Virus record (IMG/VR): IMGVR_UViG_2734482774_000007 | Location: 1 to 17,588 of that record | DNA length: 17,588 nucleotides | Strand: one strand, 5' to 3' | Source: a virus | Taxonomy: Duplodnaviria; Heunggongvirae; Uroviricota; Caudoviricetes | In this document: in pieces, positions 1-17,588 of the stretch | Position numbering within the stretch: position 1 is the first letter of the stretch | Layout: every line of letters begins with the position of its first letter | The notes under the pieces: model-generated | Seen by the model: only the letters and a program-made list of their open reading frames with translations | What the model was told of the DNA's origin: nothing | Database searches by the model: none | Translations under genes and position numbers: made by a program

Positions 1-1260
1 ATGAAGCTCAACGCCAGACAGGTCGAGACCGCAAAGCCAAAAGACAAAACCTATAAAATGGCCGATGGCGGAGGTCTGTATCTTGAGGTTTCGGCCAAGG
101 GTTCTAAATACTGGCGCATGAAATACAGACGCCCCTCAGACAAAAAAGAGGATCGCCTCGCTTTTGGTGTTTGGCCTACTGTGACGCTTGCTCAGGCAAG
201 AGCAAAGCGCGACGAAGCTAAAAAGCTTTTAGTGCAGGGCATTGATCCAAAAGCCGAACAGAAAGAAGCTCAGGCCGAGAATTCAGGGGCATATACTTTC
301 GAAACCATTGCTCGTGAATGGCATGCCAGTAACAAGCGATGGAGTGAAGACCATCGATCGCGCGTTCTTCGCTATCTTGAGCTTTATATCTTCCCTCATA
401 TCGGTTCGTCCGACATTCGCCAGCTCAAAACCAGCCACCTATTAGCCCCGATTAAAAAAGTTGATGCCAGTGGTAAACACGACGTCGCTCAGCGCCTACA
501 ACAGCGCGTCACGGCCATTATGCGGTATGCGGTACAGAACGATTACATCGACTCAAATCCAGCAAGTGACATGGCCGGTGCGTTATCGACAACCAAAGCA
601 CGACACTATCCAGCTTTACCCTCTAACCGTTTCCCTGAGTTTCTTGCACGTCTTGCTGCATATCGTGGCCGTTTAATGACACGGATTGCAGTCGAGCTTT
701 CCTTACTAACTTTTGTGCGTTCCAGTGAGTTGCGTTTCGCTCGCTGGGATGAATTCGACTTCGATAAATCTCTTTGGCGTATACCGGCAAAACGAGAAGA
801 AATTAAAGGTGTCCGTTACTCGTACCGTGGGATGAAGATGAAAGAGGAGCATATCGTTCCGCTTAGTCGGCAGGCGATGATTTTGTTAGAGCAGCTTAAG
901 CAGATTAGTGGTGATAAAGAGCTACTGTTTCCGGGAGATCATGACGCAACTAAAGTTATGAGTGAAAACACGGTTAACAGTGCTTTGCGCACAATGGGGT
1001 ATGACACAAAAACCGAAGTTTGCGGGCATGGATTCAGAACTATGGCGCGCGGTGCTTTGGGCGAATCAGGGTTGTGGAGTGATGACGCGATAGAACGTCA
1101 GCTAAGCCACTCTGAGCGTAATAGCGTTAGGGCTGCTTATATTCATACTTCAGAGCATTTGGATGAGCGTCGTTTAATGGTTCAGTGGTGGGCCGATTAT
1201 CTTGATGCTAACACTCAGGAATATATAACCCCCTACGACTTTGCAAAAAAAACTATCTAG
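1..1260 (+). CDS. intB: P4-family tyrosine integrase (site-specific recombinase)
   Basis: 419-aa ORF. N-terminal arm-binding region AKPKDKTYKMADGGGLYLEVSAKGSKYWRMKYR; catalytic region with VRSSELRFARW (Arg box), HGFRTMARG (H-x-x-R) and RAAYIHT (catalytic Tyr). ATG sits at nt 1, so the true start could lie upstream of the window. The symbol is inferred from leuX context and nanS at the far end. Confidence 0.85.
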   Translation: MKLNARQVETAKPKDKTYKMADGGGLYLEVSAKGSKYWRMKYRRPSDKKEDRLAFGVWPTVTLAQARAKRDEAKKLLVQGIDPKAEQKEAQAENSGAYTFETIAREWHASNKRWSEDHRSRVLRYLELYIFPHIGSSDIRQLKTSHLLAPIKKVDASGKHDVAQRLQQRVTAIMRYAVQNDYIDSNPASDMAGALSTTKARHYPALPSNRFPEFLARLAAYRGRLMTRIAVELSLLTFVRSSELRFARWDEFDFDKSLWRIPAKREEIKGVRYSYRGMKMKEEHIVPLSRQAMILLEQLKQISGDKELLFPGDHDATKVMSENTVNSALRTMGYDTKTEVCGHGFRTMARGALGESGLWSDDAIERQLSHSERNSVRAAYIHTSEHLDERRLMVQWWADYLDANTQEYITPYDFAKKTI

Positions 1261-1275
1261 CTTTAAAAATTTTAA

Positions 1276-1307
1276 AGTAGGGTCAAAGACCCTACTAATT
1301 ATTTTTT
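1276..1307. terminator. Bidirectional rho-independent terminator between convergent int and herA
   Basis: Perfect 9-bp stem agtagggtc / gaccctact (1276-1284 / 1288-1296) with loop aaa, T-run aattatttttt on the + strand and ttaaaattttt on the - strand. Confidence 0.7.
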
Positions 1308-3020: not shown

Positions 3021-4315
3021 AATTGATTGTTAACTCCTACTTGTTTTATTACCTTAGCCAACTGTTCTGCTGGGGTTAATGCTTTAAGATTGGGAACTAA
3101 TTTAACAAAATCACTGAAAGATGCATTTATGAAGTGAATGTCATAACCTGATAGTGAGAGTTGTTTTAGTAAATCCCAATATTTACTAGAACCGTCCCCC
3201 CCTTTATTCCGAATATGAGTTGCACATTTGAAATCTACTATAATCAACCTCATGCTTGGATTGGATTTTATTGCTGAGTAAATTGGTTCAGAAAGATGGT
3301 CATCATTGAAACCAAATCCAGATATAACTAAACAGTTATTTCTTTTTCTCAAGAAATCTAACAATCTTGAAAGTAATTCTAAGTGAGGTTGAATAAAGGC
3401 TTGCTGATATTTACCTTTCGCTGGATATATTAGACATGCGTTTGTTGCTGTTGGTTGGCTGGATTCATATATTTGCCCATCCTTTCTTATCCAACTTACA
3501 GAACCGTGGAGTTTAAATAACTGGAATACGCCCTCTACAAACTCATGCTCGTTTTCATCTCTTTTAACAACATCGTAGTTAAAATATTTACCATCGAATC
3601 TGCGAACTCCTGTATATGAAAGACCATCAACTACCATCATTCCTAATTCAGAAGCAGCTGTTTCAAAGGCTAAATCATAGTTAGTTGTGAAAACTTTTAG
3701 TCTAGGATCTCTGACTCTCCTCCTCCCCATTTTTTGTAATAAATTGATGTAAGCTGAAAGATCACAGTTGCCATCATCAATAAATGAGCGACATTTGTCT
3801 AAAATAATTGTTTTAACTTTATTTAAAAAATTCAACACTTCTTCATCATCATGAAATGCTAAATATGCTTCACAATTAGAAAGAAAGTGTTCTATGTTAG
3901 GATACTCTCGCTCTTTATATTTTACTTTATCACAAACAATTTGAGCATCAGGTTTTAATTGACCATCCTCGTTTATAGAAGATTCACTCCACATTGCACA
4001 CTTCCAGAGATCCCACATGCTTGGTCCTCCAACGTCCCCAAGCGAAGTACCACTCCCAGCGAAGAATGCAAGATTTGGGAATTGTAATGATTTTAGTAAT
4101 AGTTCGTTTATATATGCCTGATTGTCTTTCAACTCCTTCTTTTCACCATCAGTAAGAGATTGTGCTGGAGAAATAGAATCTCCTGACTCTTCTAAACTTT
4201 CATTCGTTATGTAGTCTCGCCAATAAATAAACGATTTACTATCTAATGCTTTCCAGTCGTTACTACCGGGTTTTAAAAATGAGATGTATCCGTCCGGATT
4301 TGTAGTCATAATCAT
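3017..4315 (-). CDS. sir2: SIR2-family (SIR2_2-type) putative NADase, first gene of the SIR2-HerA module
   Basis: 432-aa ORF. Rossmann-like FFAGSGTS, signature VFTTNYDLAFE (catalytic Asn) and FKLHGSVSW (catalytic His). Translationally coupled to herA. AT-rich. Confidence 0.8.
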   Translation of the reverse strand: MIMTTNPDGYISFLKPGSNDWKALDSKSFIYWRDYITNESLEESGDSISPAQSLTDGEKKELKDNQAYINELLLKSLQFPNLAFFAGSGTSLGDVGGPSMWDLWKCAMWSESSINEDGQLKPDAQIVCDKVKYKEREYPNIEHFLSNCEAYLAFHDDEEVLNFLNKVKTIILDKCRSFIDDGNCDLSAYINLLQKMGRRRVRDPRLKVFTTNYDLAFETAASELGMMVVDGLSYTGVRRFDGKYFNYDVVKRDENEHEFVEGVFQLFKLHGSVSWIRKDGQIYESSQPTATNACLIYPAKGKYQQAFIQPHLELLSRLLDFLRKRNNCLVISGFGFNDDHLSEPIYSAIKSNPSMRLIIVDFKCATHIRNKGGDGSSKYWDLLKQLSLSGYDIHFINASFSDFVKLVPNLKALTPAEQLAKVIKQVGVNNQL

Positions 4316-4872
4316 TATCCATTGATGTCATTAAGAGTTTGTTCCCAATAATTTACTACACCACGGCTGGAAGAAAAAGTAATCACAATCACTATCTTTG
4401 ACTACAGTGCGCACAATTATCTTCCCGCCACGCTTGCCCACCTTTAATACACGTGCATGTTTGATCTGAGGTCTTACGATATCTTGTACAGGTAGAGGTT
4501 ACAAGAGTGAGAACCATGCTCACTAAGGATGACAAATCTATAAATATTACCCGTAGCGCCGCTCAGTTTACGTGTGCTGCATCGATACACTGCAGTTCTT
4601 GAATCATTGCGGAGATTTCAGCAACTGCCAGCCAGTATCTCGTCAATCATTGTCACCGCCTGCGCGGCTGAGTTTGCTATTTTCTCCCTTAGCGCGAGCA
4701 GCCCCGCCCGCCTGCCCGCTTCGCTTAACAGACTGGTTTTCATGCACCCCGTAAATCGTCTCAGAAGCCACCACACAAGGGCTTTCGCGTCAAAAATGGC
4801 GCATGAGACTCATGCGTTTTCATGCGCCATAGATATGCACTCATACGCTCTCAGGCCAGCCAGGGAAAAGGC

Positions 4873-4899
4873 GTAAAAAATCCCGGTACTGGACCGGGA
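4873..4899 (-). terminator. Rho-independent terminator downstream of the sid-psu-ogr operon
   Basis: 7-bp stem tcccggt / accggga (4881-4887 / 4893-4899) with loop actgg, followed on the - strand by TTTTTTAC (4873-4880). Lies 22 nt past the ogr-like stop. Confidence 0.65.
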
Positions 4900-4921
4900 C
4901 TTCGTGGTCGTATTTTGCTAA

Positions 4922-5194
4922 TCAGACAGGAATTTGCTGACGGTTTGACAGCTTTGACGCGGAGCCATAGCGATTGAGAGTTTGCTGTTGTTTTTCCGGT
5001 ATTTTTGCTTTGTCTGATTCCTGTTCATTGCACCGAGGCTTCATAATTATCGTATCCACGCTTTCCAGTGCGGTAAATGTGCAGGAACATTCCAGATTCT
5101 GGCACTGATACCATGAGCGTTTAACCGACGGAGCTTCATAGGCGCTGGTTCTGGCGTGAGCGACCGCGCCACATTCAGGACACTTCAGGGCCAT
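4922..5194 (-). CDS. Ogr/Delta-family zinc-finger late transcription activator
   Basis: MALKCPECGAVAHARTSAYEAPSVKRSWYQCQNLECSCTFTALESV matches the P2 Ogr C-x2-C...C-x4-C zinc-finger pattern. ATG at 5192-5194 is preceded by AAGGAG with a 9-nt spacer, 1 nt after the psu stop. The ORF track's longer start at 5296 would overlap psu. Confidence 0.75.
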   Translation of the reverse strand: MALKCPECGAVAHARTSAYEAPSVKRSWYQCQNLECSCTFTALESVDTIIMKPRCNEQESDKAKIPEKQQQTLNRYGSASKLSNRQQIPV

Positions 5195-5195
5195 A

Positions 5196-5750
5196 TCAGC
5201 ACACTCCTTTTTCATTAAGTCGGTTAAGGCGGGCCAGGAAAACTTTATGTTGTGCCGGGGTGAAACTGGCTGAAGCATCAGCGCGCATTGATGCATCCAC
5301 CGTTAATCCGGTTTCGTCGATAATGCTCTTATATGCTGCTGAAATTACCGGAGTACGGACTTCCGTTTGTCGGGCTACAGCGGTTCGTAATATTTTCATT
5401 GCCGCCTCAAGCCCGTATGGTGCACAAAGAAAAGGAGCCAGAGCGTCAGTGAGTGCATCACCATGCTCGCTCATGAAGTTTTCAGTTGCGCTTGTAACAC
5501 AGCTTTCCAGCACAATCTGGTGAGCATAAAGACCATCCCGGGCGGCACAGTTAATCTGCCATTCGAGGAGTGCAAGACGCTCACGAAGATCCTCAAGTTG
5601 GCTGGCATATGCTGCGGGTTTTTCTTCAGTATCCAGCAAAGCAGCCAGACGAAGCTGGCTGGTACTTTGCACATTACGTAGTGTCAGCCAGCTTTTTATT
5701 GCCGCGCGGTAATCGTTGAGAGCTTCCTGAGTAATGGTTCCGGTATTCAT
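5196..5750 (-). CDS. psu: Psu-like polarity suppression protein
   Basis: 184 aa, close to P4 Psu size. Recalled similarity to P4 Psu (ALTDALAP..., ...FTPAQHKVF...). Start overlaps the sid-like stop (ATGA at 5747-5750). SD GAGAAGGA upstream. Confidence 0.7.
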   Translation of the reverse strand: MNTGTITQEALNDYRAAIKSWLTLRNVQSTSQLRLAALLDTEEKPAAYASQLEDLRERLALLEWQINCAARDGLYAHQIVLESCVTSATENFMSEHGDALTDALAPFLCAPYGLEAAMKILRTAVARQTEVRTPVISAAYKSIIDETGLTVDASMRADASASFTPAQHKVFLARLNRLNEKGVC

Positions 5751-6499
5751 TCCTTCTCGCCCCCTTTAGCCATGTCACGCTGTTTAAGCATCCGGGAACG
5801 TGCTGCAGGGCTGGGTGATTGTCTGGCATCCTGTATGGCTTTATCGTCCGCATAAATGCTGATCCCCGGCAGGGCAATATCATCCGTTGAAGATACGTTA
5901 CAGAACAGTGCCGGAGTGGTGAGTTGCTCGCTGATAAATTGCTTCAGCACACTTTCGGGGTCGTTTACGGTATGAACTACACCGATAACAGAAGATGCGC
6001 TTCGGCCCAGAGTCATTTTCAGCAGTCCAAGGATCTGAATAAGTTTCTGGCCGTGTTCCTTCATAAACTCATTCCAGAGCCACACTGCATGAGTTTCAAT
6101 CAGGTGATTATGTTCGCTGATGTAGCGGTTTGCAGCATCCGCAGTTTTCCATGGCAGGAATTCATTTTCTGCAGCCTGAGCAGCCAGCAAATCTTCGAAC
6201 TCATCTAGTGTTTCGCGTCCGAGGGCGATTTCTGCCCGCAGTTTTTTCATTCGTGGCGTCATATTCCCCTGATTCTCACGAAACAGGTTTCGCCATTCAT
6301 CATTAAGCGCCTGCGTCTCCGTTTTTGTATCTTCCTGACGTTTACGGATAGTTTCAGTCATTGCAGCAGCTTCGGTTTGTTTTCGCCGTTCTTCCTGCCA
6401 GACAGCTTTTGCTGCCTTAACTTTTTCCACCGCTTCGCGAATTTTCGGCGGGAGGGTGGGGGTAATGTTTGCATCAGAGATCTGGTTAACAGTTGTCAT
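5747..6499 (-). CDS. Sid-like capsid size-determination (external scaffold) protein, putative
   Basis: 250 aa from the ATG at 6499, which follows a GGAG SD; the track's start at 6532 is a TTG. Helical, charged sequence; position immediately upstream of psu as in the P4 late operon. Assignment is positional and compositional only. Confidence 0.5.
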   Translation of the reverse strand: MTTVNQISDANITPTLPPKIREAVEKVKAAKAVWQEERRKQTEAAAMTETIRKRQEDTKTETQALNDEWRNLFRENQGNMTPRMKKLRAEIALGRETLDEFEDLLAAQAAENEFLPWKTADAANRYISEHNHLIETHAVWLWNEFMKEHGQKLIQILGLLKMTLGRSASSVIGVVHTVNDPESVLKQFISEQLTTPALFCNVSSTDDIALPGISIYADDKAIQDARQSPSPAARSRMLKQRDMAKGGEKE

Positions 6500-6571
6500 G
6501 GCTGCTCCGGTAGTGTTTTGTTGTTGTGTCAATTGTGCCGGGGTCCATACAAGCGCACTACCGAGGAGGAT

Positions 6572-6589
6572 TGTGTCAGTGACTGAACA
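6572..6589 (-). promoter_or_regulatory. Candidate Ogr/Delta-dependent late promoter element (TGT-N12-ACA) upstream of sid
   Basis: TGTgtcagtgactgaACA, centred about 80 bp upstream of the sid ATG. This spacing suits a site centred near -55 with a short leader, as in P2/P4 late promoters. Confidence 0.45.
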
Positions 6590-6665
6590 ATGACCTTGTT
6601 CTGGCTAGCCAGAGAAAGGTGTCATGTCTGATCTACACGCTTCCTTTAATACATACTATTCACCA

Positions 6666-6757
6666 CTGTTCACTTCAATAAAAATATAGTAAATACATGT
6701 GGTTAAGTGGTGTAGTGTTTTAATTAAAGTGATCATCTACTGTTCATGACTGTTCAC
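6666..6757 (+). repeat. Three direct copies of CTGTTCA(C/T) in the divergent control region; the last two overlap a second TGT-N12-ACA (6741-6758)
   Basis: ctgttcac at 6666-6673, ctgttcat at 6740-6747, ctgttcac at 6750-6757. TGTtcatgactgttcACA at 6741-6758. Confidence 0.35.
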
Positions 6758-7404
6758 AGAGATAAAATTAAACATATATTTCTTTTTCATATAAGTCGCG
6801 ATATTTATTTCAGTTTATTACTGGATCTTTTCTCCTCACCAATATTCACCAGTATTCAATACATATTCTATGTAAAGAATAAAAGATGTCTTATATCTGT
6901 TTGATAATTGAACATTCAACCTCCCTGCACTCAGTTGCATTTCAGGAAAATATTCATAAAAATGAATTTGTCTGATGTTCATTAAACACATTCGGATACA
7001 TGCGGAAGTAAGATGGTAATTTAATTTCTTTAATCATCGGATTTATTGATACATATGGTGAGCTGTTTATTTTTGGCCGTTTTTGGCTCTTTTATTAATC
7101 AGGTGTTGTCTTAGTGCTTATGATGTAAAGCCCTGAATGATATGGGCTGGTTCAGATTTGAGCTGTGATCCTGCCTAGTGTAATAGACTTTTTTATTATT
7201 GATGCTCCTTATTATATTCCATAAAGGAATTGTTTGTTTTTGTTCGTTTCATACGGTTTTTAGCTGTTTTATTTTTTGAGAAATCAACATTTCACACAAA
7301 ATAAATAAAGCATGCGCGAGCCGCTTATATAAACATAATAAGGAGCTACCTGAATCCGCATGGAATTGCCCGGACTGTTGTAAACATATTAGAGAGGTAG
7401 CCAG

Positions 7405-7665
7405 ATGAATAGTATTTCCGTTTCCACCCCGGCACCAGCTGCTCCGGTGCTCCCGGTTCCGGCTCAGCAGGAGCGCTTCATACGATTACCTGAAGTGATG
7501 CACCTTTGCGGGCTATCCCGTTCAACCATCTACGACCTTATCAGCCGCGATGCCTTCCCGCAGCAGATATCCCTGGGTGGAAAAAATGTGGCCTGGGTAC
7601 AGTCGGAGGTCAGTGCATGGATGGCGGCGCGAATTGCTGCCCGCGAGCAAGGAGGCCATGCGTGA
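7405..7665 (+). CDS. alpA: AlpA/Vis-family phage transcriptional regulator (excisionase-like HTH)
   Basis: 86 aa. [47 protein letters not shown] fits the AlpA family HTH pattern. SD GAGAGG 7 nt upstream. Sits where P4 carries vis. Confidence 0.8.
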
Positions 7666-7759
7666 AACTTGCTTTGCAGTCTCATCTCCTTTTTTCTGGC
7701 TTGCGTCCTGATATCTTTTCCAGGTATAGTTTTCCCGCTGCCGCAAAATCGGCTGCCGG

Positions 7760-8007
7760 GCGTAGGAACCCGAGTTACTTATTGGCGACACCAGACGCGC
7801 CGTGCGTCTTTTTTTACGTCGTTGCTCAGGCACACCCATTTTTCGGGCTGCGGTGCTTATACCTTAGCCCCTTTCAGATAATGGTGGTCCGGGCGGGGCA
7901 GCCTTCGGGCTGGCCGGTTTCCAATAAGGCCGGTATTCCTACCCCCGTTCGGGTCACCACCCATGAGCGTAGGAACTCCGGTGGTGGCATTTACCGCTAC
8001 TTATTGG
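7760..8007 (+). promoter_or_regulatory. P4-type RNA immunity region: seqA-like (7760-7785), seqB/CI-like (7921-7942), seqC-like (7967-8007)
   Basis: A and C share the identical 10-mers gcgtaggaac and tacttattgg. B (ccaataaggccggtattcctac) carries the reverse complements ccaataag and ttcctac, so B can pair with either A or C. The region also holds several GC stems, including a UUCG-loop hairpin ggcagccttcgggctg near 7897. Confidence 0.45.
7793..7815 (+). terminator. Rho-independent terminator directly after the seqA-like element
   Basis: Stem agacgc / gcgtct (7793-7798 / 7804-7809) with loop gccgt, followed by a 7-T run to 7815. Confidence 0.6.
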
Positions 8008-8209
8008 AGGTTGCCCTTATGGCTACGATCCTCGCCCCGTCACATCCTCAATTTATATTTGTTTTTGCCGCCGTTCGTCGTGCAGAACGTAAACCACGTA
8101 TCAGTATGCTGCGTATCATCGCCAGCAATGAGCATCATGCACGTCTTTCACTGGTCCATGAGTATGTGCTTTGTCTTGCTGCTCGCCTGCCTGTCCGGGA
8201 GGTGATCTA

Positions 8210-8434
8210 ATGAATCACGCCGCAATCTCTTATGACGATATTCTCCGCCTGAAGCATCTTCGTAACGTGGGAGAGTTTGTCACTGGAATGGCTGTTCTTC
8301 AGGATTGCTACGAAAAACCTGCCAGTGCTCAATGTGAACAACTGGTTTCCCTGATTTATCTGATGACAGAGCAGCTTGATGGCGTGGTACAGCGTTGCCA
8401 GGATGACCTCATGAACATGGAGGTGGTGCAATGA
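8210..8434 (+). CDS. Hypothetical small protein in the satellite left operon
   Basis: 74 aa from the ATG at 8210, which follows SD GGGAGG with a 7-nt spacer. Stop overlaps the next ORF's start (ATGA at 8431-8434). Confidence 0.55.
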
Positions 8435-8754
8435 AATCACGCACTCTTTCCCTTTCACTTCGGGTAGCGTTGTATCGCCGCGCGGTAGCCTGCGCCTGGT
8501 TGAGTGCCTGCTATCAGCAAAACCGCCATCTGCAGCTCACTCTGGATGAAATTGAAACCGCTATTGCCCGTGAGCTTGAAGGATTTTATCTGCGACAGCA
8601 CGGGCAAACAAAAGGCATGGAAATCGCCTGCGCCCTGCTTTCAGACCTGATGGAATACGGCCCTCTAATGTCCTGTCCCGCACTCTCCCAGCTCGGAATA
8701 GCCGTAATGGATGAGTTATGCGTCCGTCACATCAAAAAGCCGGTTTTACACTGA
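8431..8754 (+). CDS. Hypothetical protein in the satellite left operon, immediately upstream of the primase
   Basis: 107-aa ORF, translationally coupled to the upstream ORF and ending 14 nt before the primase start. Confidence 0.55.
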
Positions 8755-8768
8755 GGGAGAACTGCGTC

Positions 8769-11102
8769 ATGTCAGGAATGAAAGTCAGTCAGGCCGTGAA
8801 GGCTGCCCGCGGTCACTGGGCTCAGATTCTGCCAGCGCTGGGCGTGAATATATTGAAAAATCGCCATCAGCCTTGCCCGGTCTGTGGCGGTAAAGATCGT
8901 TTTCGCTTCGACGATCAGGAAGGACGCGGAACATGGTTCTGCAATCAGTGCGGAGCCGGGGATGGTTTAGCGCTTGTCACCAGGGCACTGAATGTGGATA
9001 TCAGTGAAGCAGCTGACAGGATACATGGACTGACACATGATCTGTCTATAGTTAATTCCGAGGTCAGGACGTTAACCGCCGATACCGATAGCGGGAAAGA
9101 TGCAGCGGCAGCACTTGCCGCGCGACTGCTGCAAGCCTCGCGTGAATCTGCCGGAAACACTTATCTTACACATAAAGGTTTCCCGGAGCATATTTGCCAT
9201 GAGCTGACTTCAGCTCATAAGGCCGGTGGTGTGATGTTCCGCCCCGGTGATTTGATCGTCCCACTCTATAACGCTGACGGGGAGCTGGTGAATATTCAGC
9301 TTATCAGTGGCAATGGTAGCAAGTGTTTTCTTAAAGGAGGTCAGGTTAAGGAGGCCTATCATCTGATAGAAGGGGGCGGGAGTTCTGTAAGAAGGATTTG
9401 GATTGCGGAAGGTTACGCCACGGCGCTTACCATTCATTATTTGACAGGAGAAGCCGTCATGGTGGCATTTTCGTCGGTCAACTTTCTTTCTCTGAGCAGC
9501 GTTGCCCATAATAAGTATCCTGGATATCAGTTAATTATTGCAGCGGACCGCGATCTGAATGGTTCAGGCCAGAACAGGGCTGAAACTGCTGCAAAAGCGA
9601 GTCAGTGTGACATTGTGCTGCCACCGGTTTTTGGTGACTGGAATGATGCGCTTACCCAATACGGAGAGGAATCCACCCGGAAGGCAATTCTTGAGGCTTT
9701 GAAGCCACATAACGCCAGTCCTTTCGACACAATGAGTGAAGCAGAATTCACAGCGATGAGTGTCAGCGAAAAAGCTCAGAGGGTTCGGGAGCATTACAGG
9801 GATGCACTGGCGGTTGATCCGAACGGGCAGCTTTTATCCCGCTACGAGTCTGGAGCGTGGAAAGTTATTTCTCAGTCAGATTTTGCCCGAGATGTCGCAG
9901 CCCTTTTCCAGCGCCTCGGGGCACCGTTTTCCTCAGGAAAAATTGCCTCACTGGTGGAAACATTAAAGTTAATTGTTCCGCAGCAGCAAAATCCGTCACG
10001 TCATCTGATTGGTTTTCGTAATGGCGTTCTCGATACGCGAACAGGGCTTTTTAGTCCGCACTGTAAAGAGAACTGGCTGCGTACCCTGTGTGAAGTCGAT
10101 TTCACGCCACCGGTAAAGGGGGAAACGCTTGAAACTCATGCCCCGGCATTCTGGCGTTGGTTGGACCGGGCCGCCGGACACAAGCCAGCAAAACGCGACA
10201 TTATTCTTGCAGCGTTATTTATGGTGCTGGCGAACCGTTATGACTGGCAGCTCTTTCTGGAAGTGACTGGCCCTGGTGGAAGTGGCAAAAGTATTCTGGC
10301 TGAAATTGCGACCATGCTTGCTGGAGAGGATAACGCCACCTCTGCGACCATTGAAACGCTGGAGTCCCCGCGAGAACGTGCGGCTCTGATAGGTTTTTCT
10401 CTTATTCGCCTGCCTGATCAGGAGAAGTGGAGCGGCGACGGCGCCGGGCTTAAGGCTATAACTGGTGGCGATGCAGTATCTGTGGACCCCAAATATCAGA
10501 ATGCTTATTCAACACATATTCCGGCGGTTATCCTGGCCGTAAATAATAATCCTATGCGCTTCACTGATCGCAGTGGTGGTGTGTCCCGCAGGAGAGTTAT
10601 TCTGCATTTTCCTGAGCAGATAGCACCGGAAGAACGCGATCCGCAGTTGAAAGATAAAATTGCACGAGAACTGGCTGTGATTGTTCGTCAGCTCATGCAG
10701 CGTTTCAGCGATCCGATGAGCGCCAGAACATTGCTTCAGTCGCAGCAGAATTCTGATGAGGCTCTCACCATCAAGCGTGATGCTGATCCAGCATTTGATT
10801 TTTGTGGCTACCTTGAGGCATTACCTGACACCAACGGCATGTTTATGGGGAACGCCAATATTGTCCCGCGCCAGCCACGTACGTACCTTTACCATGCCTA
10901 TCTCGTATACATGGAGGCTAATGGCTTTAAAAATACCCTTAGCCTGACAATGTTTGGCAAAGGGCTACCAGTTATGCTGAAGGAATACGGGCTAAATTAT
11001 GAGAAGCGGCGAACTAATCAGGGAATGCAGACTAACCTCACTTTAAAAGAGGAAAGTAATGCAGACTGGCTTCCCAAGTGTGATGAGCTAACAATCAAAT
11101 AA
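8769..11102 (+). CDS. P4 alpha-type primase-helicase
   Basis: 777 aa from the ATG at 8769 (SD GAGGGAGA 9 nt upstream); the track's 8718 start is non-ATG. Zinc-binding primase motif CPVCGGKDRFRFDD...CNQCG; Walker A GPGGSGKS in the C-terminal helicase part. Length equals that recalled for P4 alpha. Confidence 0.9.
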   Translation: MSGMKVSQAVKAARGHWAQILPALGVNILKNRHQPCPVCGGKDRFRFDDQEGRGTWFCNQCGAGDGLALVTRALNVDISEAADRIHGLTHDLSIVNSEVRTLTADTDSGKDAAAALAARLLQASRESAGNTYLTHKGFPEHICHELTSAHKAGGVMFRPGDLIVPLYNADGELVNIQLISGNGSKCFLKGGQVKEAYHLIEGGGSSVRRIWIAEGYATALTIHYLTGEAVMVAFSSVNFLSLSSVAHNKYPGYQLIIAADRDLNGSGQNRAETAAKASQCDIVLPPVFGDWNDALTQYGEESTRKAILEALKPHNASPFDTMSEAEFTAMSVSEKAQRVREHYRDALAVDPNGQLLSRYESGAWKVISQSDFARDVAALFQRLGAPFSSGKIASLVETLKLIVPQQQNPSRHLIGFRNGVLDTRTGLFSPHCKENWLRTLCEVDFTPPVKGETLETHAPAFWRWLDRAAGHKPAKRDIILAALFMVLANRYDWQLFLEVTGPGGSGKSILAEIATMLAGEDNATSATIETLESPRERAALIGFSLIRLPDQEKWSGDGAGLKAITGGDAVSVDPKYQNAYSTHIPAVILAVNNNPMRFTDRSGGVSRRRVILHFPEQIAPEERDPQLKDKIARELAVIVRQLMQRFSDPMSARTLLQSQQNSDEALTIKRDADPAFDFCGYLEALPDTNGMFMGNANIVPRQPRTYLYHAYLVYMEANGFKNTLSLTMFGKGLPVMLKEYGLNYEKRRTNQGMQTNLTLKEESNADWLPKCDELTIK

Positions 11103-11110
11103 TTACAACT

Positions 11111-11137
11111 AACCCGGCTGATGCCGGGTTTCTTATT
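11111..11137 (+). terminator. Rho-independent terminator after the primase gene
   Basis: 8-bp stem aacccggc / gccgggtt with loop tgat, followed by tcttatt. Confidence 0.6.
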
Positions 11138-11453
11138 GGAAACGTACGAATGTAGAGATAGCAGTTCACTCTTCACCTAACTGTTAATACATAACCAATT
11201 GATATATAAATTAAAAGTTGCAGAGTGAATAGTGTGCATGGTTTTGCGAAAAAAAAGTATTTTTTGTTGAGTCAAGTCCCGGTTTGGATCCGTTTAACGG
11301 AACCTAACTGGATTGACTATTTCTTCGATAATTTTTGGATAAATAATCAACAAAAATCAAAATGTGAACAGCGAATGGAGGGGGCACAAAAGGGGGCATA
11401 ATTGAATTAATTATTAATAAAATCCATTTTTTACAACAATTTAAATGAATATG

Positions 11454-11473
11454 CGAGTCCGGCCTTCGCACCA
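11454..11473 (+). repeat. attR: direct repeat of the 3' end of tRNA-Leu (leuX)
   Basis: cgagtccggccttcgcacca resembles the recalled leuX 3' end (T-loop end, T-stem, acceptor stem, CCA) with one G missing. Upstream sequence is not tRNA-like, so only the 3' core is duplicated. Confidence 0.6.
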
Positions 11474-11489
11474 CACCGTATGCAAATCG

Positions 11490-11513
11490 AGCCGCTCAAG
11501 AGCGGCTTTTTTT
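11490..11513 (+). terminator. Rho-independent terminator following the tRNA-3'-end repeat (displaced native tRNA terminator)
   Basis: Stem agccgctc / gagcggct with a short loop, followed by a 7-T run. Confidence 0.6.
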
Positions 11514-11697
11514 GTGTCTGAAATCCGTTAGTTACCTATCTTTCTCGCTATTTTAACTCTCTCAGGGCTAACCAATTCCAACCCATCGCAAACGAAAAAT
11601 GTTGGTACAGGCGTTGGTATTTTCGGTTCGACATTAATTTGTATTAGCTCAGTCCTGATCTGACAGCTATCTGCCAGATCAGGTTCGGATTAATACA

Positions 11698-12548
11698 TTA
11701 TATCTGCCCGCCTACACCTTTAAACTTCTCAATAAACGCGACGATCTTCTGGAAAACCGTCTGTTTTTTCGTCTTATATTGCGGATTTAACGGACTGAGT
11801 TTTGGCAATGTCTCGTTTAATTCCGTGCCATTTTCGGTGGCGTATTCGCGTTTTAAAGACGTGCGAATATAGCGTTTCGCCGCCTCTTCATTGAGATTTT
11901 CTTCTTTGATCAAGGCTTCTGCTTCACGTTGCTGTTCGCGTTGAGCAAAGGTAAAAAACGCGTCAATGATGCTGGCTTTATCCGGCAAATCATCCAGGTT
12001 CGTTTGCTGAATAAAATCGACCACCAGACCTTCTTTGGCACGGTTACCAAGGCTCGAACGAATTAAGCGCTTGACCTCTTCGGTCATTTCGCCCTTACCT
12101 TTGTTTTGTCTGTTGTGTTCGAAAATCAGTCCAAGGATATAATCCAGGTTTATTTCCTGAGACTTCAGCAAATCGACCTCAAAAACCACGTCATCCCAGT
12201 CGGTGGTTGATTTTTCTTTTTTGTCAGCTTCTTTCTCACGGCGCTGCCAGTCACGAATATCGTTATAGGCTGAACGATAATCCTGAATCTTGCGATCAGC
12301 AGGGAGACGAATTATTTGCAATTCAGCGAGCTTTTCATCATCCACATAATGTTCTGCTTTGAATTTTTCTACTGCAACAGGATCACTAAGATCGATTTGT
12401 TGCAGGGCTTTCAGCGTGGCAAATTCATCATAGTTTTGCAGGATGTTCTCGGCACGCAGGTATTCACCAAACAGTTTTACGAAGTCTTTCTTCTCTTTTT
12501 CACTTTCAATATTGGCAGGGTCAGGGAACCGTTGTTCCAGTTCTGAAA
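11698..12548 (-). pseudogene. Type I restriction enzyme R subunit (HsdR) C-terminal fragment
   Basis: The frame is open from about 12545 to the stop at 11698 (about 283 codons) with no plausible ATG/RBS at its 5' end. Helical sequence ([10 protein letters not shown]..., [43 protein letters not shown]) resembles the conserved HsdR C-terminal domain as recalled. No helicase or nuclease motifs are present. Confidence 0.5.
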
Positions 12549-12803
12549 CTAGATGAAGTAGCCTTTGGTTTTGATGGCATCGTCTTTAATGTCATCAGTT
12601 ATTACGCTGTCATCCAGTTTCGCATAACAGATACTGTCATCACCGGCTTCAATATAGCTGGAAAAATTTTCGCTGATAAAACGGTAGAAAAGCGCGCCCA
12701 GAACGTATTGCTTAAAGTCCCATCCATCGACCGAACCTCTGACATCGTTAGCAATTTGCCAGATCTGGCGATGAAGCTCCGCGCGCTGCTGAAGACTGGT
12801 CAT
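12549..12803 (-). pseudogene. Type I R-M methyltransferase (HsdM) N-terminal fragment, truncated after 84 codons
   Basis: LQQRAELHRQIWQIANDVRGSVDGWDFKQYVLGALFYRFISENF is a typical HsdM N-terminal domain signature. Good RBS (AAGGA, 6-nt spacer) at the ATG at 12803. The frame ends in TAG and continues in another frame into the HsdR-like sequence, with no methyltransferase motifs. Confidence 0.65.
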
Positions 12804-13109
12804 TTTTTATCCTTTGAATGTGTTTTTAACGTCGGCTTTTGCCGGGATTTTACCGGAAGTTTTTTGGTTTTTCAGATTTGTATGATGGTGAGGAGGGGAT
12901 TCAGCACCAGATTGTTAGTGCATCTTACTCAGCATTCACCGCTTGAGTCAGGAGGCTACTTTATATGTCCATCGTCCATCCGTAGGTGATCAGATAATTT
13001 ATTGCGAGTCACCTTCCCGATTTTCAATCTCATTATTTACCCAATCTTTCACCAGTGGATAATTCGTCTGCTACTAACGGCGAGTGTATTTTTTTACGGA
13101 TGAAAGATT

Positions 13110-13943
13110 ATGCAAACAGAAGCTGAAGTCTTAACCGATCATAACGAACTAATTTGCTCGACCAGTATTGAGCGTATCGTCACAGGACGTGATAGTGCAC
13201 TGAACCAGATAGCGGCGTTAATCCAAAAGCTTGATGATATCTCCAGCCTGACATCCAGTATTGGCGGTGATGTGGCTGGAACCTGGGCAATGCGTAATGG
13301 ATATGCCTTTGATTGCTGGCTGATGCAGCCAACCGACAAAGCGATGCCGGTGATCACCCGAAATATCGATCGCAGTATCTGGCGCGATCTCATGCTGAAG
13401 TCCGGGATGTTGACTCTGATGGATGCCGAAGCCCGCAGTCAGTGGGCAAAGAACCTGGAGGAGGGCGATCTCCCGGCGATTAGCGAAGCCAACATCCTGA
13501 GTACCTTTGAACAACTTCACCACAATAAGCAGGACGTTTTCGAACGTGGGATTATCAATGTATTTAAGGGATTAAGCTGGGACTACAAAACCAATAATCC
13601 CTGTTATTTCGGTAAGAAGATTATCGTTAACAATCTGGTGAAGCATGACAGATGGGGCTACAGCCTGAACTGGGGCTGGCGGCGAGATCAGCTTGCCGAT
13701 CTGGAACGGATGTTCTATCTGCTGGATGGGAAGACCATTCCCGATAACCGGCATGATGTTGCGATTCGGTTTATGGACTTCGTTAGTGCTCACCCGCATG
13801 AACAGGTATTTGATGACGATTTATTTGTCATCCGCTATTACCAGAAAGGCAGTGGGCATATCACTTTCAAGCGACTGGATCTGGTGGATAAGATGAATGA
13901 TATCGTGGCGAAGCACTTTCCGTCAGCGTTATCAGCAAAATGA
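13110..13943 (+). CDS. Hypothetical protein (277 aa) immediately upstream of the AbiE pair
   Basis: Long ORF with ordinary codon usage and no motif I can assign by eye. Ends 70 bp before the AbiEi-like start on the same strand. Confidence 0.6.
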   Translation: MQTEAEVLTDHNELICSTSIERIVTGRDSALNQIAALIQKLDDISSLTSSIGGDVAGTWAMRNGYAFDCWLMQPTDKAMPVITRNIDRSIWRDLMLKSGMLTLMDAEARSQWAKNLEEGDLPAISEANILSTFEQLHHNKQDVFERGIINVFKGLSWDYKTNNPCYFGKKIIVNNLVKHDRWGYSLNWGWRRDQLADLERMFYLLDGKTIPDNRHDVAIRFMDFVSAHPHEQVFDDDLFVIRYYQKGSGHITFKRLDLVDKMNDIVAKHFPSALSAK

Positions 13944-14012
13944 ATGTCGTATGTTTGCTATCTAAAATGTCGTATTTTTGCTACTCTTTATGCAATGACT
14001 CTGGAGGCGAAT

Positions 14013-14408
14013 ATGACGATAAAAGCACGCATTCAGTCACGACTGAAACGTTCTAAACGTTACGTATTCACTCGTGACGACTTTAAAGATATTGCAGGCT
14101 ACGATCAGGTTGGTCGGGTATTGCGCGAGCTTGTCAGGGAAGGGCAACTGTTGAAGGTTGGTTATGGCGTGTATACCAAAGCACGGCGGAACGGTATTAC
14201 AGGCAAGGTAATGCCAGCGGCTCCCGGAGGCTCTTCAGCGGTGATTGTCGAAACGCTGGAACGCCTGAAAGTACGCTATCGTTTTGCTGGCGCAACGCAG
14301 GCATACAATAGCGGTACTTCTACGCAGATCCCAGCTTCACCCGAGATAAAAACCCCCCGGCGTTTTAAACGCGTATTATCTGTAGGGAACAGCAGATTAA
14401 ATGGATGA
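14013..14408 (+). CDS. AbiEi-family antitoxin / transcriptional regulator (type IV TA, abortive infection)
   Basis: 131 aa from the ATG at 14013 (SD GGAGG, 5-nt spacer). N-terminal RYVFTRDDFKDIAGYDQVGRVLRELVREGQLLKVGYGVYTKA fits the AbiEi winged-helix pattern. Stop overlaps the AbiEii start by 8 nt. Confidence 0.7.
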   Translation: MTIKARIQSRLKRSKRYVFTRDDFKDIAGYDQVGRVLRELVREGQLLKVGYGVYTKARRNGITGKVMPAAPGGSSAVIVETLERLKVRYRFAGATQAYNSGTSTQIPASPEIKTPRRFKRVLSVGNSRLNG

Positions 14409-15348
14409 TTTAACCACTCTTTTTTCTGAAGTGGCTGACGCGCTTGGTATTGAGTCTGTCGCAATTGTGGAAAAAGATCACTATATCGTTGAGCTTTTGC
14501 AATTGCTTAAACCTCTGGTGTTCGATACTCATCAATTGGTATTTGCCGGAGGAACCGCTCTGGCAAAATCAGGTGTCGCACTTAATCGCATGTCGGAAGA
14601 TGTGGATATCAAACTGGTGCCTAAGGATGCATTTCAGGCACTTTCCCGCACTCAGCGAAAAAATACCCGTAAAGAAATTGTTCAGGCAGTTTCCAGTGCA
14701 ATAGCTTCATCGGGTGTGTTCAATTTTGATGATGATTACCCAAAAGTGACGCGGGATGAATATCGTTATAATGACATACCTGTTCGTTATCCACAGCGAG
14801 TAGTGCAGGCACCTTGTTTGCGTCCTTTTATCCGGCTGGAATTGATGGAAGCGAAGTTACTGGAGCCTTCTGAATTACGGGATATTCATTCACTGGTAAC
14901 AGGGATCACGGGAAAAGCGGCTATTGTTTCAGCGTTTCCATGCGCAACTATCATTAGCTCACAGGCAGAAAAGCTGGTGGCGATGTTACGTCGTACTGCG
15001 GCAGTTGTGCGAGATGTTGAGCGATTTGATGATGCATCGCTGGTACGTCATATCTACGATACAAACTGTATTGTTGAGACGAGTCATGTTGATATGAGTC
15101 TGCTCGTTGATTTTGTTCAACAAACTATTGAGCAGGACATTCAGCGTTACGGCAACCAGTACCCGCAGTTTTGCGCGTCTCCAGTTGATGAGCTAAAAAT
15201 GGGACTGGATGAGTTGGCGAACAATCCTCTCTACGAGATGCGCTATCAGCAGTTTGTTTCGCCAATGGTGTATGGAGAGCGAAAGATCACATGGGATGAG
15301 GCTTACTCCAGGTTTAGGAGCTTAGCGCTAGCCATCCTGAATGCTTGA
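14401..15348 (+). CDS. AbiEii-family nucleotidyltransferase toxin (type IV TA, abortive infection)
   Basis: 315 aa. Nucleotidyltransferase motif LVFAGGTALAKSGVALNRMSEDVDIKL (GG...S-E-D-x-D) near the N-terminus. Confidence 0.8.
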   Translation: MDDLTTLFSEVADALGIESVAIVEKDHYIVELLQLLKPLVFDTHQLVFAGGTALAKSGVALNRMSEDVDIKLVPKDAFQALSRTQRKNTRKEIVQAVSSAIASSGVFNFDDDYPKVTRDEYRYNDIPVRYPQRVVQAPCLRPFIRLELMEAKLLEPSELRDIHSLVTGITGKAAIVSAFPCATIISSQAEKLVAMLRRTAAVVRDVERFDDASLVRHIYDTNCIVETSHVDMSLLVDFVQQTIEQDIQRYGNQYPQFCASPVDELKMGLDELANNPLYEMRYQQFVSPMVYGERKITWDEAYSRFRSLALAILNA

Positions 15349-15385
15349 TATGCAGCATTGTCTTTACTTGAAATTCTGAAATTCT

Positions 15386-15571
15386 CTAAACCATAGAGAT
15401 GATTTTTATGATCCAGTCTTTCTCTTGTTGAGATAGTTCCAGTTTGCTCACTCGTGTTAAGAAGGTATTGATCACCTGAACATCCGAATTGGTGAGCCTA
15501 TTTAATAGAGCGGGTGGTATACCTTTACTAACAATCGCTTTGCGGTGACTTTCGTAGTTTTTATTACTCAT
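15386..15571 (-). CDS. Small hypothetical protein (61 aa)
   Basis: ATG at 15569-15571 preceded by GAGGA with a 6-nt spacer. AT-rich. No recognisable motif. Confidence 0.4.
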   Translation of the reverse strand: MSNKNYESHRKAIVSKGIPPALLNRLTNSDVQVINTFLTRVSKLELSQQEKDWIIKIISMV

Positions 15572-15636
15572 TGTTGATCCTCAAATATCATTGTATGGCG
15601 GCATTGATCGTTTCCAGCAACCTTTACTTACTCACT

Positions 15637-15813
15637 TCAAACTGCATCCTCGTAGACTGTTCCACTACAATAATCGAAAAGGCGTGGATGTCCATTCAGG
15701 TATCCCGCTAATACGTATAGCAATAACAATGGTTTATGCGGTGCGCGCTGTTCACCCTTATGCCAGATTTTTATATTGGCAATTGCCTGCTGTAGCGATT
15801 TACTGGAAGCCAT
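15637..15813 (-). CDS. Small hypothetical protein (about 58 aa from the internal ATG)
   Basis: The track ORF starts at a TTG (15870). The internal ATG at 15811-15813 (MASSKSLQQ...) is preceded by AGGGA with a 5-nt spacer. Could be a fragment. Confidence 0.3.
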   Translation of the reverse strand: MASSKSLQQAIANIKIWHKGEQRAPHKPLLLLYVLAGYLNGHPRLFDYCSGTVYEDAV

Positions 15814-15949
15814 TGATATCCCTGGCAGTGAAATAATTGCGATCATGCTCGCAAATTTTCTGCTGTTCAAGCCTGCAAGTGAAGATATATTACTTTGATC
15901 TCATTTGTTTTTTTGCTGCTTGTTCTGAGAACGTATAAGGACATTCTCT

Positions 15950-16600
15950 ATGAATAAACTCCCCGATCATCTTCCGCGGCGGTATATCATCGAAGCTATT
16001 CATTTATGGGATGCGGGAGAAACTCATCAGTTCCAGCCTGCACGGTTGTATGAAATTGAATATCATGGCCGACGTTACCCCTCGAAGGCGATTGCTGGCA
16101 TCGCAGCGACATTGATGACGGGGACGCAATTTACCCCTGCGGATTTCACCGGCGGAATAAAATCTAAATGTGTCAAGCTACTCATAGAGCAGGGATTTCA
16201 TATTCATCAGGATAAAGCCGCTGCGGCTCCCATAGCCGACGTTCTGTTCCCGGATGAGCTGCCGTCGCAGGGGACCTACGTTGAAGGTGCGGCGATAAAG
16301 GTGACAGTAAACCGCTATGAACGCGATAAAAAGGCCCGAGATAAAGCGGTCGAACATCATGGATGCCAATGCAACGTATGCGGCGTTGATCTGGTGAAGA
16401 TCTATGGTGATATCGCTGAAGGCTTTATCCATGTGCATCACCTGGTGCCGCTTTCAGCCATTAAAGAGGATTACCAGCTGGATCCAGTTAATGATTTGCT
16501 TCCTGTGTGCCCTAATTGCCATGCGATGCTGCACCGACGCAAACCACCGTTTACGCCGGAGCAGTTAAAAGCGCTAATGGATGCGAATAAATCAAATTAA
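15950..16600 (+). CDS. HNH endonuclease family protein with an uncharacterised N-terminal domain
   Basis: 216 aa. C-terminal HNH/zinc-binding motif CQCNVCG...HVHHLVPLS...NDLLPVCPNCHAMLH. SD AAGGA upstream. Stop is 7 bp from the convergent nanS stop. Confidence 0.8.
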   Translation: MNKLPDHLPRRYIIEAIHLWDAGETHQFQPARLYEIEYHGRRYPSKAIAGIAATLMTGTQFTPADFTGGIKSKCVKLLIEQGFHIHQDKAAAAPIADVLFPDELPSQGTYVEGAAIKVTVNRYERDKKARDKAVEHHGCQCNVCGVDLVKIYGDIAEGFIHVHHLVPLSAIKEDYQLDPVNDLLPVCPNCHAMLHRRKPPFTPEQLKALMDANKSN

Positions 16601-16607
16601 TGAACGC

Positions 16608-17588
16608 TCACCTTTCGCGCCAAAACTGCAAAATTGCTTCTACAAACCTGTCAGAAATAATCCCCCGACGGGCTGCCGCGCTGAAATGACTGCTTCGCAG
16701 TGCCGTCGTCCAGTTCTCCGGTGACCGGTACGCTGAACCGTAATATCCCATGATTAAATCGTCCGGGTCTTCATCAGGCGCGTTCGTCAGTCCTCTTTCA
16801 CCTTGTTGCTGGAAGTCGACGAAAATAATATTAGCTAAAACATTATTTTGATAATTGCCATAAATAGCTTCATACGCATGAGGGAAATTTTCTTTCCAGT
16901 ACCAGGTGGTATCGCCGCAAAACCACGGCGCGTCAGTAATTTTATTAAGCTGAGAATGGTATTGTTTTAGATCCCTACGAAAGGCTTCAACCATATGATT
17001 AAAGTGTTGAGGGTGTGACGAGTAGTCACAGGTCATTAAGTCAAATTCGCCTTGCATCCAGCATACGCCGAGGAATTTGTTCTGCGGATTTTTTGCCAGT
17101 GCGGCTCGCGTTCTGCTGACTAAATCCTGGTATAGCGGAGTATCCGTTCCCCAACGACAAGCATCATGGCTGGCTCCGTGCCGTTCTGAATATGTCCCTT
17201 CGCTGCCTGCGATAAAAGCCGAGCCGCCACGACAACATGGAACGATGAGAACCCCTGCATTATCAGGAATGAAGGGCAGTAATTTCCGTGCAATATGCAG
17301 TGCCTGGCCAACGGTGCCGTACTGTGTTTGATGATTCGTTGCCAGAGGATGGTGATAACCCTGCATATCCTGAACATCGTGTGGGCAGTGAGTCAGTGGA
17401 ATAATGTCGTTAAAGTGACATGACGGGCCTCCGGGATGCGTATGCGCAAATCTTGCTAATTGTTTAATTCTGGGATGAGGCGCATCTTCCCTGTCCGGTA
17501 ATGGCAGTCCTTCGCCATACGCCATGGCATTAGACTGACCAGCAACGGTAAGAACATAGTAATAATCGGGCGATATTATTGCGTCCAT
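16608..17588 (-). CDS. nanS: Sialate O-acetylesterase NanS/YjhS (SGNH-type hydrolase)
   Basis: 326-aa ORF starting with an ATG exactly at the window end. Recognised from recalled E. coli YjhS/NanS (MDAIISPDYYYVLTVAGQSNAMAYGEGLPLPD...FWRER). Higher GC than the cargo, consistent with a core gene. Confidence 0.8.
   Translation of the reverse strand: MDAIISPDYYYVLTVAGQSNAMAYGEGLPLPDREDAPHPRIKQLARFAHTHPGGPSCHFNDIIPLTHCPHDVQDMQGYHHPLATNHQTQYGTVGQALHIARKLLPFIPDNAGVLIVPCCRGGSAFIAGSEGTYSERHGASHDACRWGTDTPLYQDLVSRTRAALAKNPQNKFLGVCWMQGEFDLMTCDYSSHPQHFNHMVEAFRRDLKQYHSQLNKITDAPWFCGDTTWYWKENFPHAYEAIYGNYQNNVLANIIFVDFQQQGERGLTNAPDEDPDDLIMGYYGSAYRSPENWTTALRSSHFSAAARRGIISDRFVEAILQFWRER

Follow-up and report, generated by a model that had tools for sequence, protein, structure and literature searches.

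A 216-residue protein of ScoMcrA-type head and HNH domains, encoded beside nanS, as a candidate restriction nuclease of Escherichia coli

We analysed a stretch of 17,588 nucleotides (positions 1 to 17,588 of IMG/VR record IMGVR_UViG_2734482774_000007; the whole stretch is called the window here), in which a small nuclease gene converges on the core gene nanS. Its product consists of a ScoMcrA-type head domain and an HNH nuclease domain, and we refer to both gene and protein as head-HNH. The protein is an uncharacterised restriction-type HNH nuclease of the McrA/ScoMcrA class, found in an ordinary defence context and common in Escherichia coli. We consider it most likely, with a probability of about 0.6, that head-HNH works as a stand-alone type IV-style restriction nuclease against phages or plasmids. 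Comparison of genomes shows that it is what remains of a cassette of two divergent genes, an old fixture between leuX and nanS. Coordinates of all features are collected in Table 1.

The open reading frame (ORF) is real, and both of its domains are under purifying selection. Compared with orthologues of seven other lineages, nonsynonymous differences (pN 0.19-0.29) are far below synonymous ones (pS 0.65-0.79), and the ratio of nonsynonymous to synonymous rates (dN/dS) is ~0.1-0.2 in both domains where dS could be estimated. Within E. coli, the differences from the allele of strain ESBL15 are mostly synonymous (pN 0.002, pS 0.020). Strain UTME-7 carries an annotated gene with a 100% DNA match, and the predicted protein is identical to RefSeq WP_001037971.1. 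The ORF coordinates given in a preliminary description, made from the sequence alone, were confirmed, as was its placing of the stop codon 7 bp (16601-16607) from the convergent nanS stop. A Shine-Dalgarno-like AAGGA can be read in the sequence 8-9 nt 5' of the ATG. Full-length members of the protein cluster number 2133, against ~90 truncated ones, and the truncated alleles include clusters of 161 and 123 residues. The gene stands beside nanS in 1237 of 5426 complete E. coli genomes (23%) and is thus accessory rather than core.

The C-terminal part of the protein is a McrA-class HNH domain of the beta-beta-alpha-Me type. Pfam HNH (PF01844) matched residues 141-197 over its full profile (1-47) with 22.9 bits, against a gathering cut-off of 21.4. 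Eight residues (C141, C144, C190, H163, H164, N189, H191, and H195) are invariant in 100 homologues and C187 is nearly so; every catalytic and zinc residue of the beta-beta-alpha-Me/McrA motif, including two CxxC pairs, is present. The nearest solved HNH domain by sequence is that of EcoKMcrA (PDB 6ghc), which aligned with residues 100-198, its HNH domain proper with 123-198 (E 4.9e-4 with the single sequence, 1.8e-5 with a profile). The McrA-type HNH/zinc-finger layout recognised in the preliminary description is therefore upheld by the Pfam match, the invariant residues, and the 6ghc alignment. Ahead of this domain, a linker contains a pre-HNH motif that is kept in homologues and in HNH cassettes joined to different N-terminal domains. 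The predicted local distance difference test score (pLDDT) in an AlphaFold2 model falls below 50 at residues 89-104 and 107-124.

The same AlphaFold2 model, built with a 100-sequence alignment, divided the chain into a compact domain (residues 1-88), a region of low confidence (89-124), and the HNH domain, which begins at residue 125. Modelled alone, the N-terminal domain reached a pLDDT of 87.8 and a predicted template modelling score of 0.82, with the fold of the crystallised ScoMcrA head. Its sequence matched residues 4-94 of ScoMcrA (PDB 5zmm) with E 2.7e-5 by phmmer and 2e-11 by profile, and Pfam family PF26345 (ScoMcrA_N) is precomputed on a 97%-identical protein and on ~110 homologues. 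Our local Pfam copy gave no PF26345 match, even for proteins that carry the precomputed one, so the identity of the head rests on the sequence and fold matches to the PDB entry together with the precomputed annotations. The preliminary description had set aside 120 N-terminal residues as a domain that it could not name. The profile search and structure prediction that it proposed for them gave a ScoMcrA-type head, and the folded part is shorter, at 88 residues, the rest being linker and pre-HNH motif. The domain now has a name, to which no function is attached; the role of the head is not established even in ScoMcrA (PMC6224610).

Both halves of the protein are homologous to modules of type IV enzymes. 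PADLOC returned partial matches to mREase_IV models, one for each domain (PDLC03662 at residues 25-87, E 5.7e-6; PDLC03656 at residues 122-198, E 8.3e-6). When the head alone served as query of an exhaustive profile search, 1539 clusters (50% identity) matched at E <=1e-3, of which 328 passed E <=1e-10. We tallied architectures in the best 104 head-domain matches of at least 190 residues. Nuclease domains were frequent (HNH in 51, HNH_2 in 22, HNH_5 in 5), readers of DNA modification occurred repeatedly (EVE in 14, SRA and DUF3427 in 3 each), and NOV_C (6), McrB-type AAA_5 (2), MrcB_N (1), and Mrr_N (1) were also present. Since the head is fused mainly to restriction nucleases and readers, it is an N-terminal accessory of modification-dependent restriction enzymes, most of which also have a recognised reader in cis. 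Most head-containing proteins are 300-420 residues long, and the 216-residue protein of the window is the minimal form, with nothing beyond the head and a nuclease domain. A word-indexed protein search with the N-terminal domain alone returned 30 short fragments and no information on architecture. Among the top head-domain matches, a local hidden Markov model of the SBD domain found no fusion of head and SBD besides ScoMcrA. The head proteins also gave 26 matches to NF045808, the NCBIfam model 'phosphorothioated DNA-binding restriction endonuclease' for EcoWI-type SBD-HNH proteins; since matches to the SBD-HNH profile all lay in its HNH_2 part, these 26 probably reflect HNH_2 rather than SBD.

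Comparison with characterised enzymes helps to define what is minimal about head-HNH. ScoMcrA (Sco4631) of Streptomyces coelicolor is a type IV enzyme dependent on phosphorothioation and 5-methylcytosine (5mC). Its 561 residues include an SBD and an SRA domain between head and HNH, whereas the 216 residues of the window protein leave no room for either: NF045808 scored 15.4 bits against a cut-off of 180, which excludes membership, and Pfam found neither SRA nor EVE. The role of the SBD lies within the ScoMcrA chain, but in enterobacteria with a separate divergent gene, which is degraded in the window. EcoKMcrA, the HNH restriction enzyme of the e14 element of E. coli K-12 that depends on 5mC or 5-hydroxymethylcytosine, shares with head-HNH the pre-HNH segment, the HH...CPNCH motif, the Cys4 zinc site, and a single-chain sensor-linker-HNH plan; the window protein lacks its N-terminal 5mC-reading domain, NEco. 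Enzymes of the EcoWI/SprMcrA type (SBD-HNH, NF045808), to which the divergent neighbour in E. coli, Citrobacter, and Klebsiella aerogenes belongs, are similar in their small sensor-plus-HNH design and defence context, but they combine SBD (PF26340) with HNH_2 (PF13391) rather than head with HNH. The nuclease half also has relatives in VcaM4I, TagI, ScoA3IV, and related EVE-HNH, SRA-HNH, and Mrr_N-HNH enzymes. The HNH cassette at residues ~95-216, including the FPDE...VNRYERD motif, is 50-58% identical to theirs and recurs behind Mrr_N, EVE, and DUF3427. Such enzymes carry a reader of the PUA superfamily or a winged helix, with a known or predicted base pocket, whereas the window protein has the head only; many head-containing proteins combine head, EVE, and HNH or head, SRA, and HNH.

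The genomic contexts of head-HNH are mostly those of defence genes. Across genera, nine of the 12 contexts sampled were defence islands, with neighbours that included type I restriction-modification (R-M) systems, AbiE, Kiwa, SIR2, GmrSD, STAND NTPases, a helicase-PLD protein, and a dnd-type cluster. The family is rare on true plasmids.

Given these results, we favour a stand-alone restriction nuclease, in which the head would attach the protein to incoming DNA and the HNH domain, on its tether, would nick or cut nearby, probably as a dimer. E. coli makes Dam and Dcm methylation, so neither of these marks can be the target. The partners of the head in other proteins, the shared HNH cassette, the partial PADLOC matches, the low dN/dS, the defence contexts, the retention of the gene without its partner, and an active start region (the last two described below) all support this function. 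From them we infer DNA binding by the head, dependence on DNA modification, and a defence phenotype. The preliminary description had proposed a modification-dependent (type IV) or other defence nuclease; the protein is a reasonable candidate for such an enzyme, and the reading of a modification by its head would be the conjectural part of the proposal.

Several points weigh against a stand-alone restriction nuclease. The head has no known ligand and is not known to bind DNA; that of ScoMcrA is joined flexibly to the rest of the protein and contributes neither to the binding of phosphorothioated DNA nor to dimerisation (PMC6224610). Because most head proteins have a recognised reader (EVE, SRA, or DUF3427) in cis, the head may not determine specificity, which would leave the minimal protein without an obvious sensor. 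Our search of the literature found no experiment on any minimal head-HNH protein. A consensus scan of the + strand upstream of the gene found no sigma-70 promoter. Finally, selection for head-HNH is not strong everywhere, since the gene body is deleted in 1741 of the E. coli genomes.

A more specific version of this function is tentative and on the whole doubtful. The head would itself read a DNA feature that E. coli lacks, such as a backbone or base modification; the 216-residue protein would then be the minimal enzyme in a type IV class of new specificity, and the cassette a two-sensor 'split ScoMcrA'. SBD genes and dnd-type clusters are repeatedly linked to head-HNH, which would fit a feature related to phosphorothioation. 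Head-HNH is the simplest natural context of a widespread head domain (at least 1539 clusters, with a crystal structure) and occurs in a tractable host, which makes the 216-residue protein the obvious construct for learning what the head does. Its import is otherwise modest, and our understanding of restriction and defence islands is unchanged.

A different mode of action would have the head sense a small molecule or phage protein and switch on a non-specific HNH domain, causing abortive infection as the SAVED-HNH effector Cap5 does. The nearest HNH folds by Foldseek are those of CBASS Cap5, Cas5-HNH, and Cas9, PADLOC also gave weak matches to SAVED_HNH effector models (E 0.005-0.03), and a DNA-binding role of the head has not been demonstrated. 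However, all these matches are weak (Foldseek E above 1e-3) and involve the HNH core alone, no cyclase or other signal generator recurred among the sampled neighbourhoods, and the fusion partners of the head are overwhelmingly readers of DNA modification rather than signalling domains. We therefore regard a signal-activated effector as improbable.

The partner of head-HNH survives in the window as an N-terminal stub. A minus-strand ORF at 15637..15870 contains NF045808 profile positions 2-45 of 284 (E 1.6e-16). At the same position, strain SCZE5 has an intact SBD-HNH gene of 290 residues (product WP_000168553), divergent from head-HNH and beside nanS, and homology of the window to it ends at 15670, which leaves 48 codons. 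The complete cassette stands beside nanS in 337 of the 5426 genomes. Divergent pairs are also present in K. aerogenes, Citrobacter farmeri, and Citrobacter amalonaticus, with spacers of 141-179 bp (136-179 bp with E. coli included). The four species provide four different chromosomal neighbourhoods, and the cassette therefore travels as a unit. E. coli, C. farmeri, and K. aerogenes share a conserved 24-nt block of the spacer around a palindrome, TTGCGAT[C/G]ATGCTCGCAA, whereas the remaining spacer sequence has diverged. The palindrome was missed by a general inverted-repeat search and flagged by a terminator scan; it is lost in K-12. It is possibly a shared operator or 5'-untranslated-region element of the two genes.

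This arrangement raises the question of whether head-HNH works only with SBD-HNH, perhaps by being drawn to phosphorothioated DNA as an additional nuclease, in which case it would be a functionless orphan in the window. ScoMcrA has head and SBD fused in one chain, the pair with its conserved palindrome travels together, and an E. coli integrative conjugative element carries both genes 4 kb apart. However, each gene is often found alone in other genera. Head-HNH has no SBD gene next to it in Pantoea, Raoultella, Pseudescherichia, Shewanella, Citrobacter freundii, and two metagenomic contexts, and SBD-HNH stands without head-HNH in Salmonella, Enterobacter hormaechei, Buttiauxella, and Enterobacter MGH24, so that the pairing is facultative. 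Within E. coli, ~900 genomes keep head-HNH near full length without an intact SBD-HNH (1237 against 337). Moreover, purified EcoWI, an SBD-HNH enzyme, cuts phosphorothioated DNA by itself (PMC9521924), and the HNH domains of the pair belong to different Pfam families. An obligate partnership accordingly seems to us a poor prospect.

Loss at the nanS junction has gone further in K-12, where head-HNH is absent. What remains there is the stub of the SBD gene (89.5% identity), the spacer, and the five initial codons of head-HNH (MNKLP), of which P5 is invariant across the HNH family. These codons are fused to the sequence that follows the head-HNH stop in the window, and the fusion ORF is ythB (b4802, 32 residues). 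The scar lies at 8598-8696 of the K-12 locus (L099), and its counterparts in the window are 15950-15965 and 16600-16689. In pairwise alignments of the window and K-12, the deletion amounts to 641 bp between imperfect 15-nt direct repeats, with the 5' flank and the 3' repeat copy retained in K-12. We also considered the opposite direction, a K-12-like ancestor into which the HNH gene was inserted, and rejected it on account of the stub, spacer, and five HNH codons that K-12 keeps, with their invariant P5. The scar junction is present in 1741 of the 5426 genomes, K-12 included. The decay of a small defence cassette can thus be followed cleanly in natural genomes at one chromosomal position, with 337 intact pairs, 1237 genomes with head-HNH, and 1741 scars.

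The junction also explains the origin of a validated small protein gene of K-12: ythB is a deletion scar that joined the start of a nuclease gene to the strand antisense to nanS. Ribosome profiling revealed YthB, an immunoblot of an allele tagged on the chromosome confirmed it (bioRxiv 10.1101/511675), and ythB-nanS is listed among convergent excludons (PMC12288877). Because YthB uses the head-HNH start region and is detected in K-12, this start region is probably active, with a transcript that would read into nanS antisense. The ythB-like ORF that overlaps the head-HNH stop in the window is homologous to K-12 YthB residues 6-32 and is annotated as 'hypothetical protein' in ESBL15 and SCZE5.

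Such stepwise decay could also mean that head-HNH is a neutral remnant, an intact-looking and disused leftover heading for a K-12-type deletion; the truncated alleles and the lack of a predicted strong promoter are in line with this. On the other side stand a frame in which all catalytic and zinc residues are intact, the mostly synonymous variation among E. coli alleles, strong constraint across genera, and the expression of the start region in K-12. We judge a neutral remnant to be unlikely, if slightly less so than the two alternatives above.

The surroundings of the gene bear on its origin. The preliminary description placed it at the chromosomal edge of an island. The island in question, a P4-like satellite at leuX, ends at its attR, 4.5 kb short of head-HNH. 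The closest genomes are 99.6-99.9% identical over window positions 1-11526, and the best satellite matches stop at ~11526. The match at attR covers the leuX 3' end together with native downstream DNA (loci L001 and L002); a tRNA scan of the window found none, since attR holds only a 21-nt partial copy of leuX. Past attR, strains without the satellite have colinear DNA downstream of their leuX, and this part of the window contains no integrase. Head-HNH is therefore neither satellite cargo nor at the island edge, and it belongs to an older, integrase-free chromosomal stretch fixed beside nanS. Comparing the nanS-proximal junction across strains, a check that the preliminary description had suggested, likewise identified the gene as a common fixture. 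A common fixture unrelated to defence would, according to that description, have spoken against its proposal: the gene is indeed common, with 1741 genomes carrying the scar in addition to the 1237 with the gene, and nothing points to a role outside defence.

In ESBL15, this stretch reads leuX, hsdR, hsdS, hsdM, DUF4942, DUF6088, AbiEii, the SBD-HNH stub, head-HNH, and nanS, with no integrase. Relative to it, the window has a 4.9-kb deletion that takes most of the type I R-M system: hsdS is gone entirely, hsdM for the most part, and hsdR apart from its C-terminal part, which is now joined directly to what is left of hsdM. The AbiEii ORF of the window is 14 codons longer than the ESBL15 annotation. 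UTME-7 has IS1 alone between leuX and head-HNH. The immediate neighbours of head-HNH in the window are the stub and nanS, with no cognate protective methyltransferase; the nearest methyltransferase gene is the type I hsdM, which belongs to a separate system and is deleted here.

The satellite close by, and the fact that homing or selfish elements, phage packaging, and housekeeping repair all include HNH domains, could suggest a nuclease from one of these classes rather than from defence. However, the gene lies outside attR, stands free between the stub and nanS instead of interrupting a host gene or intron, and is accessory. In 50,697 phage records we found no full-length homologue, and the 8 records that matched did so in the HNH cassette alone. 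The head likewise found no structural match in BFVD (best E 0.56). A homing-endonuclease or phage structural origin of the N-terminal domain, which would have spoken against defence in the preliminary description, is rejected on these grounds, and a non-defence nuclease is the least probable of the alternatives by a clear distance.

Table 1. Features of the window (nucleotide positions; residue numbers refer to the encoded protein)
Feature	Position	Strand	Basis or remark
P4-like satellite at leuX	1 to ~11453		integrase, SIR2 and ATPase pair, psu/sid-type genes, alpha-type primase-helicase
Satellite integrase	1-1260		
SIR2-family and ATP-binding protein genes	1299-4315	-	in defence-hotspot position
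Satellite primase-helicase	8718-11102		
attR of the satellite, 21-nt copy of the tRNA-Leu leuX 3' end	~11454-11474	+	k-mer and BLAST match
Type I R-M remnant, hsdR C-terminal part	11699-12551	-	
Type I R-M remnant, first ~84 hsdM codons	12550-12803	-	
DUF4942 gene	13110-13943		
DUF6088/AbiEi-like antitoxin gene	within 13944-14408		
AbiEii/AbiGii nucleotidyltransferase toxin gene	14401-15348		
Partner SBD-HNH pseudogene, 48-codon N-terminal stub	15670..15813	-	NCBIfam NF045808, tblastn, hidden Markov model
Divergent spacer common to both nuclease genes	15814..15949		holds conserved palindrome
Palindrome TTGCGATCATGCTCGCAA	15837-15854	both	terminator-like scan
Head-HNH nuclease gene	15950..16600	+	216 residues, ATG to TAA; RefSeq label 'HNH endonuclease'
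ScoMcrA-type head domain (PF26345), residues 1-88	15950..16213	+	alpha-beta-beta-alpha-alpha-beta fold
Direct repeat, 5' copy CGATCATCTTCCGCG	15964..15978	+	
Flexible linker and pre-HNH motif FPDE...EG...VNRYERD..AR, residues 89-124	16214..16321	+	pLDDT, homologue alignment
McrA-class beta-beta-alpha-Me HNH domain with CxxC...CxxC zinc site, residues 125-216	16322..16597	+	Pfam HNH, invariant residues, 6ghc alignment
ythB-like ORF, 29 codons, antisense to nanS 3' end	16600..16689	+	ATG overlaps head-HNH stop (TAATG)
Direct repeat, 3' copy CGCTCACCTTTCGCG	16605..16619	+	overlaps nanS stop codon
nanS (sialate O-acetylesterase), convergent core gene	16608..17588	-	326 residues, intact

Other genomes provided further observations on the two nuclease genes and their neighbours. 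In K. aerogenes (L008 6260-8636), Mrr_N-HNH, SBD-HNH_2, and head-HNH genes stand side by side, adjoining a type I R-M system. Residues 97-210 of the window protein share 55% identity with the Mrr_N-HNH cassette, and the trio is a clear case of domain shuffling. At a leuX-type locus of C. freundii (L097 8115-14651), head-HNH adjoins a phosphorothioation-associated cluster (dnd_rel_methyl, a DndA-like desulfurase, dnd_assoc_4, a DndD-like ATPase, and dnd_restrict_1). The two together would damage the cell's own DNA if head-HNH attacked phosphorothioation in the same sequence context. A second E. coli allele of head-HNH, 58% identical and present on >500 contigs, is carried by the integrative conjugative element mentioned above, which sits at the same ahr/leuX-side locus (L003-L007 2245-16654), has TraI, TraG, TraU, and AbiEi genes, and brings an SBD-HNH_2 gene of its own. 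The Salmonella counterpart of the locus also has DUF4942 close to its SBD-HNH gene.

A fusion of AAA_11/AAA_12 helicase and PLD domains, ~1175 residues long, lies within a few kb of minimal head-HNH in three lineages: Pantoea ananatis (L093 3054-6575), Pseudescherichia (L011 8252-11788), and a metagenomic enterobacterial contig (L104 10297-12645). DUF1493 genes occur near it in Pantoea and on the metagenomic contig, together with DUF8209 in Pantoea. With regard to nanS, PGAP calls the gene 'incomplete, missing C-terminus' in strains with head-HNH (ESBL15 and SCZE5; L100 11082-11426, L002 18472-18816), where RefSeq has the 29-codon ythB-like ORF annotated instead. A disruption of nanS in such strains was considered and rejected, as the 326-residue frame is intact in all five loci checked; the label looks like an annotation artefact.

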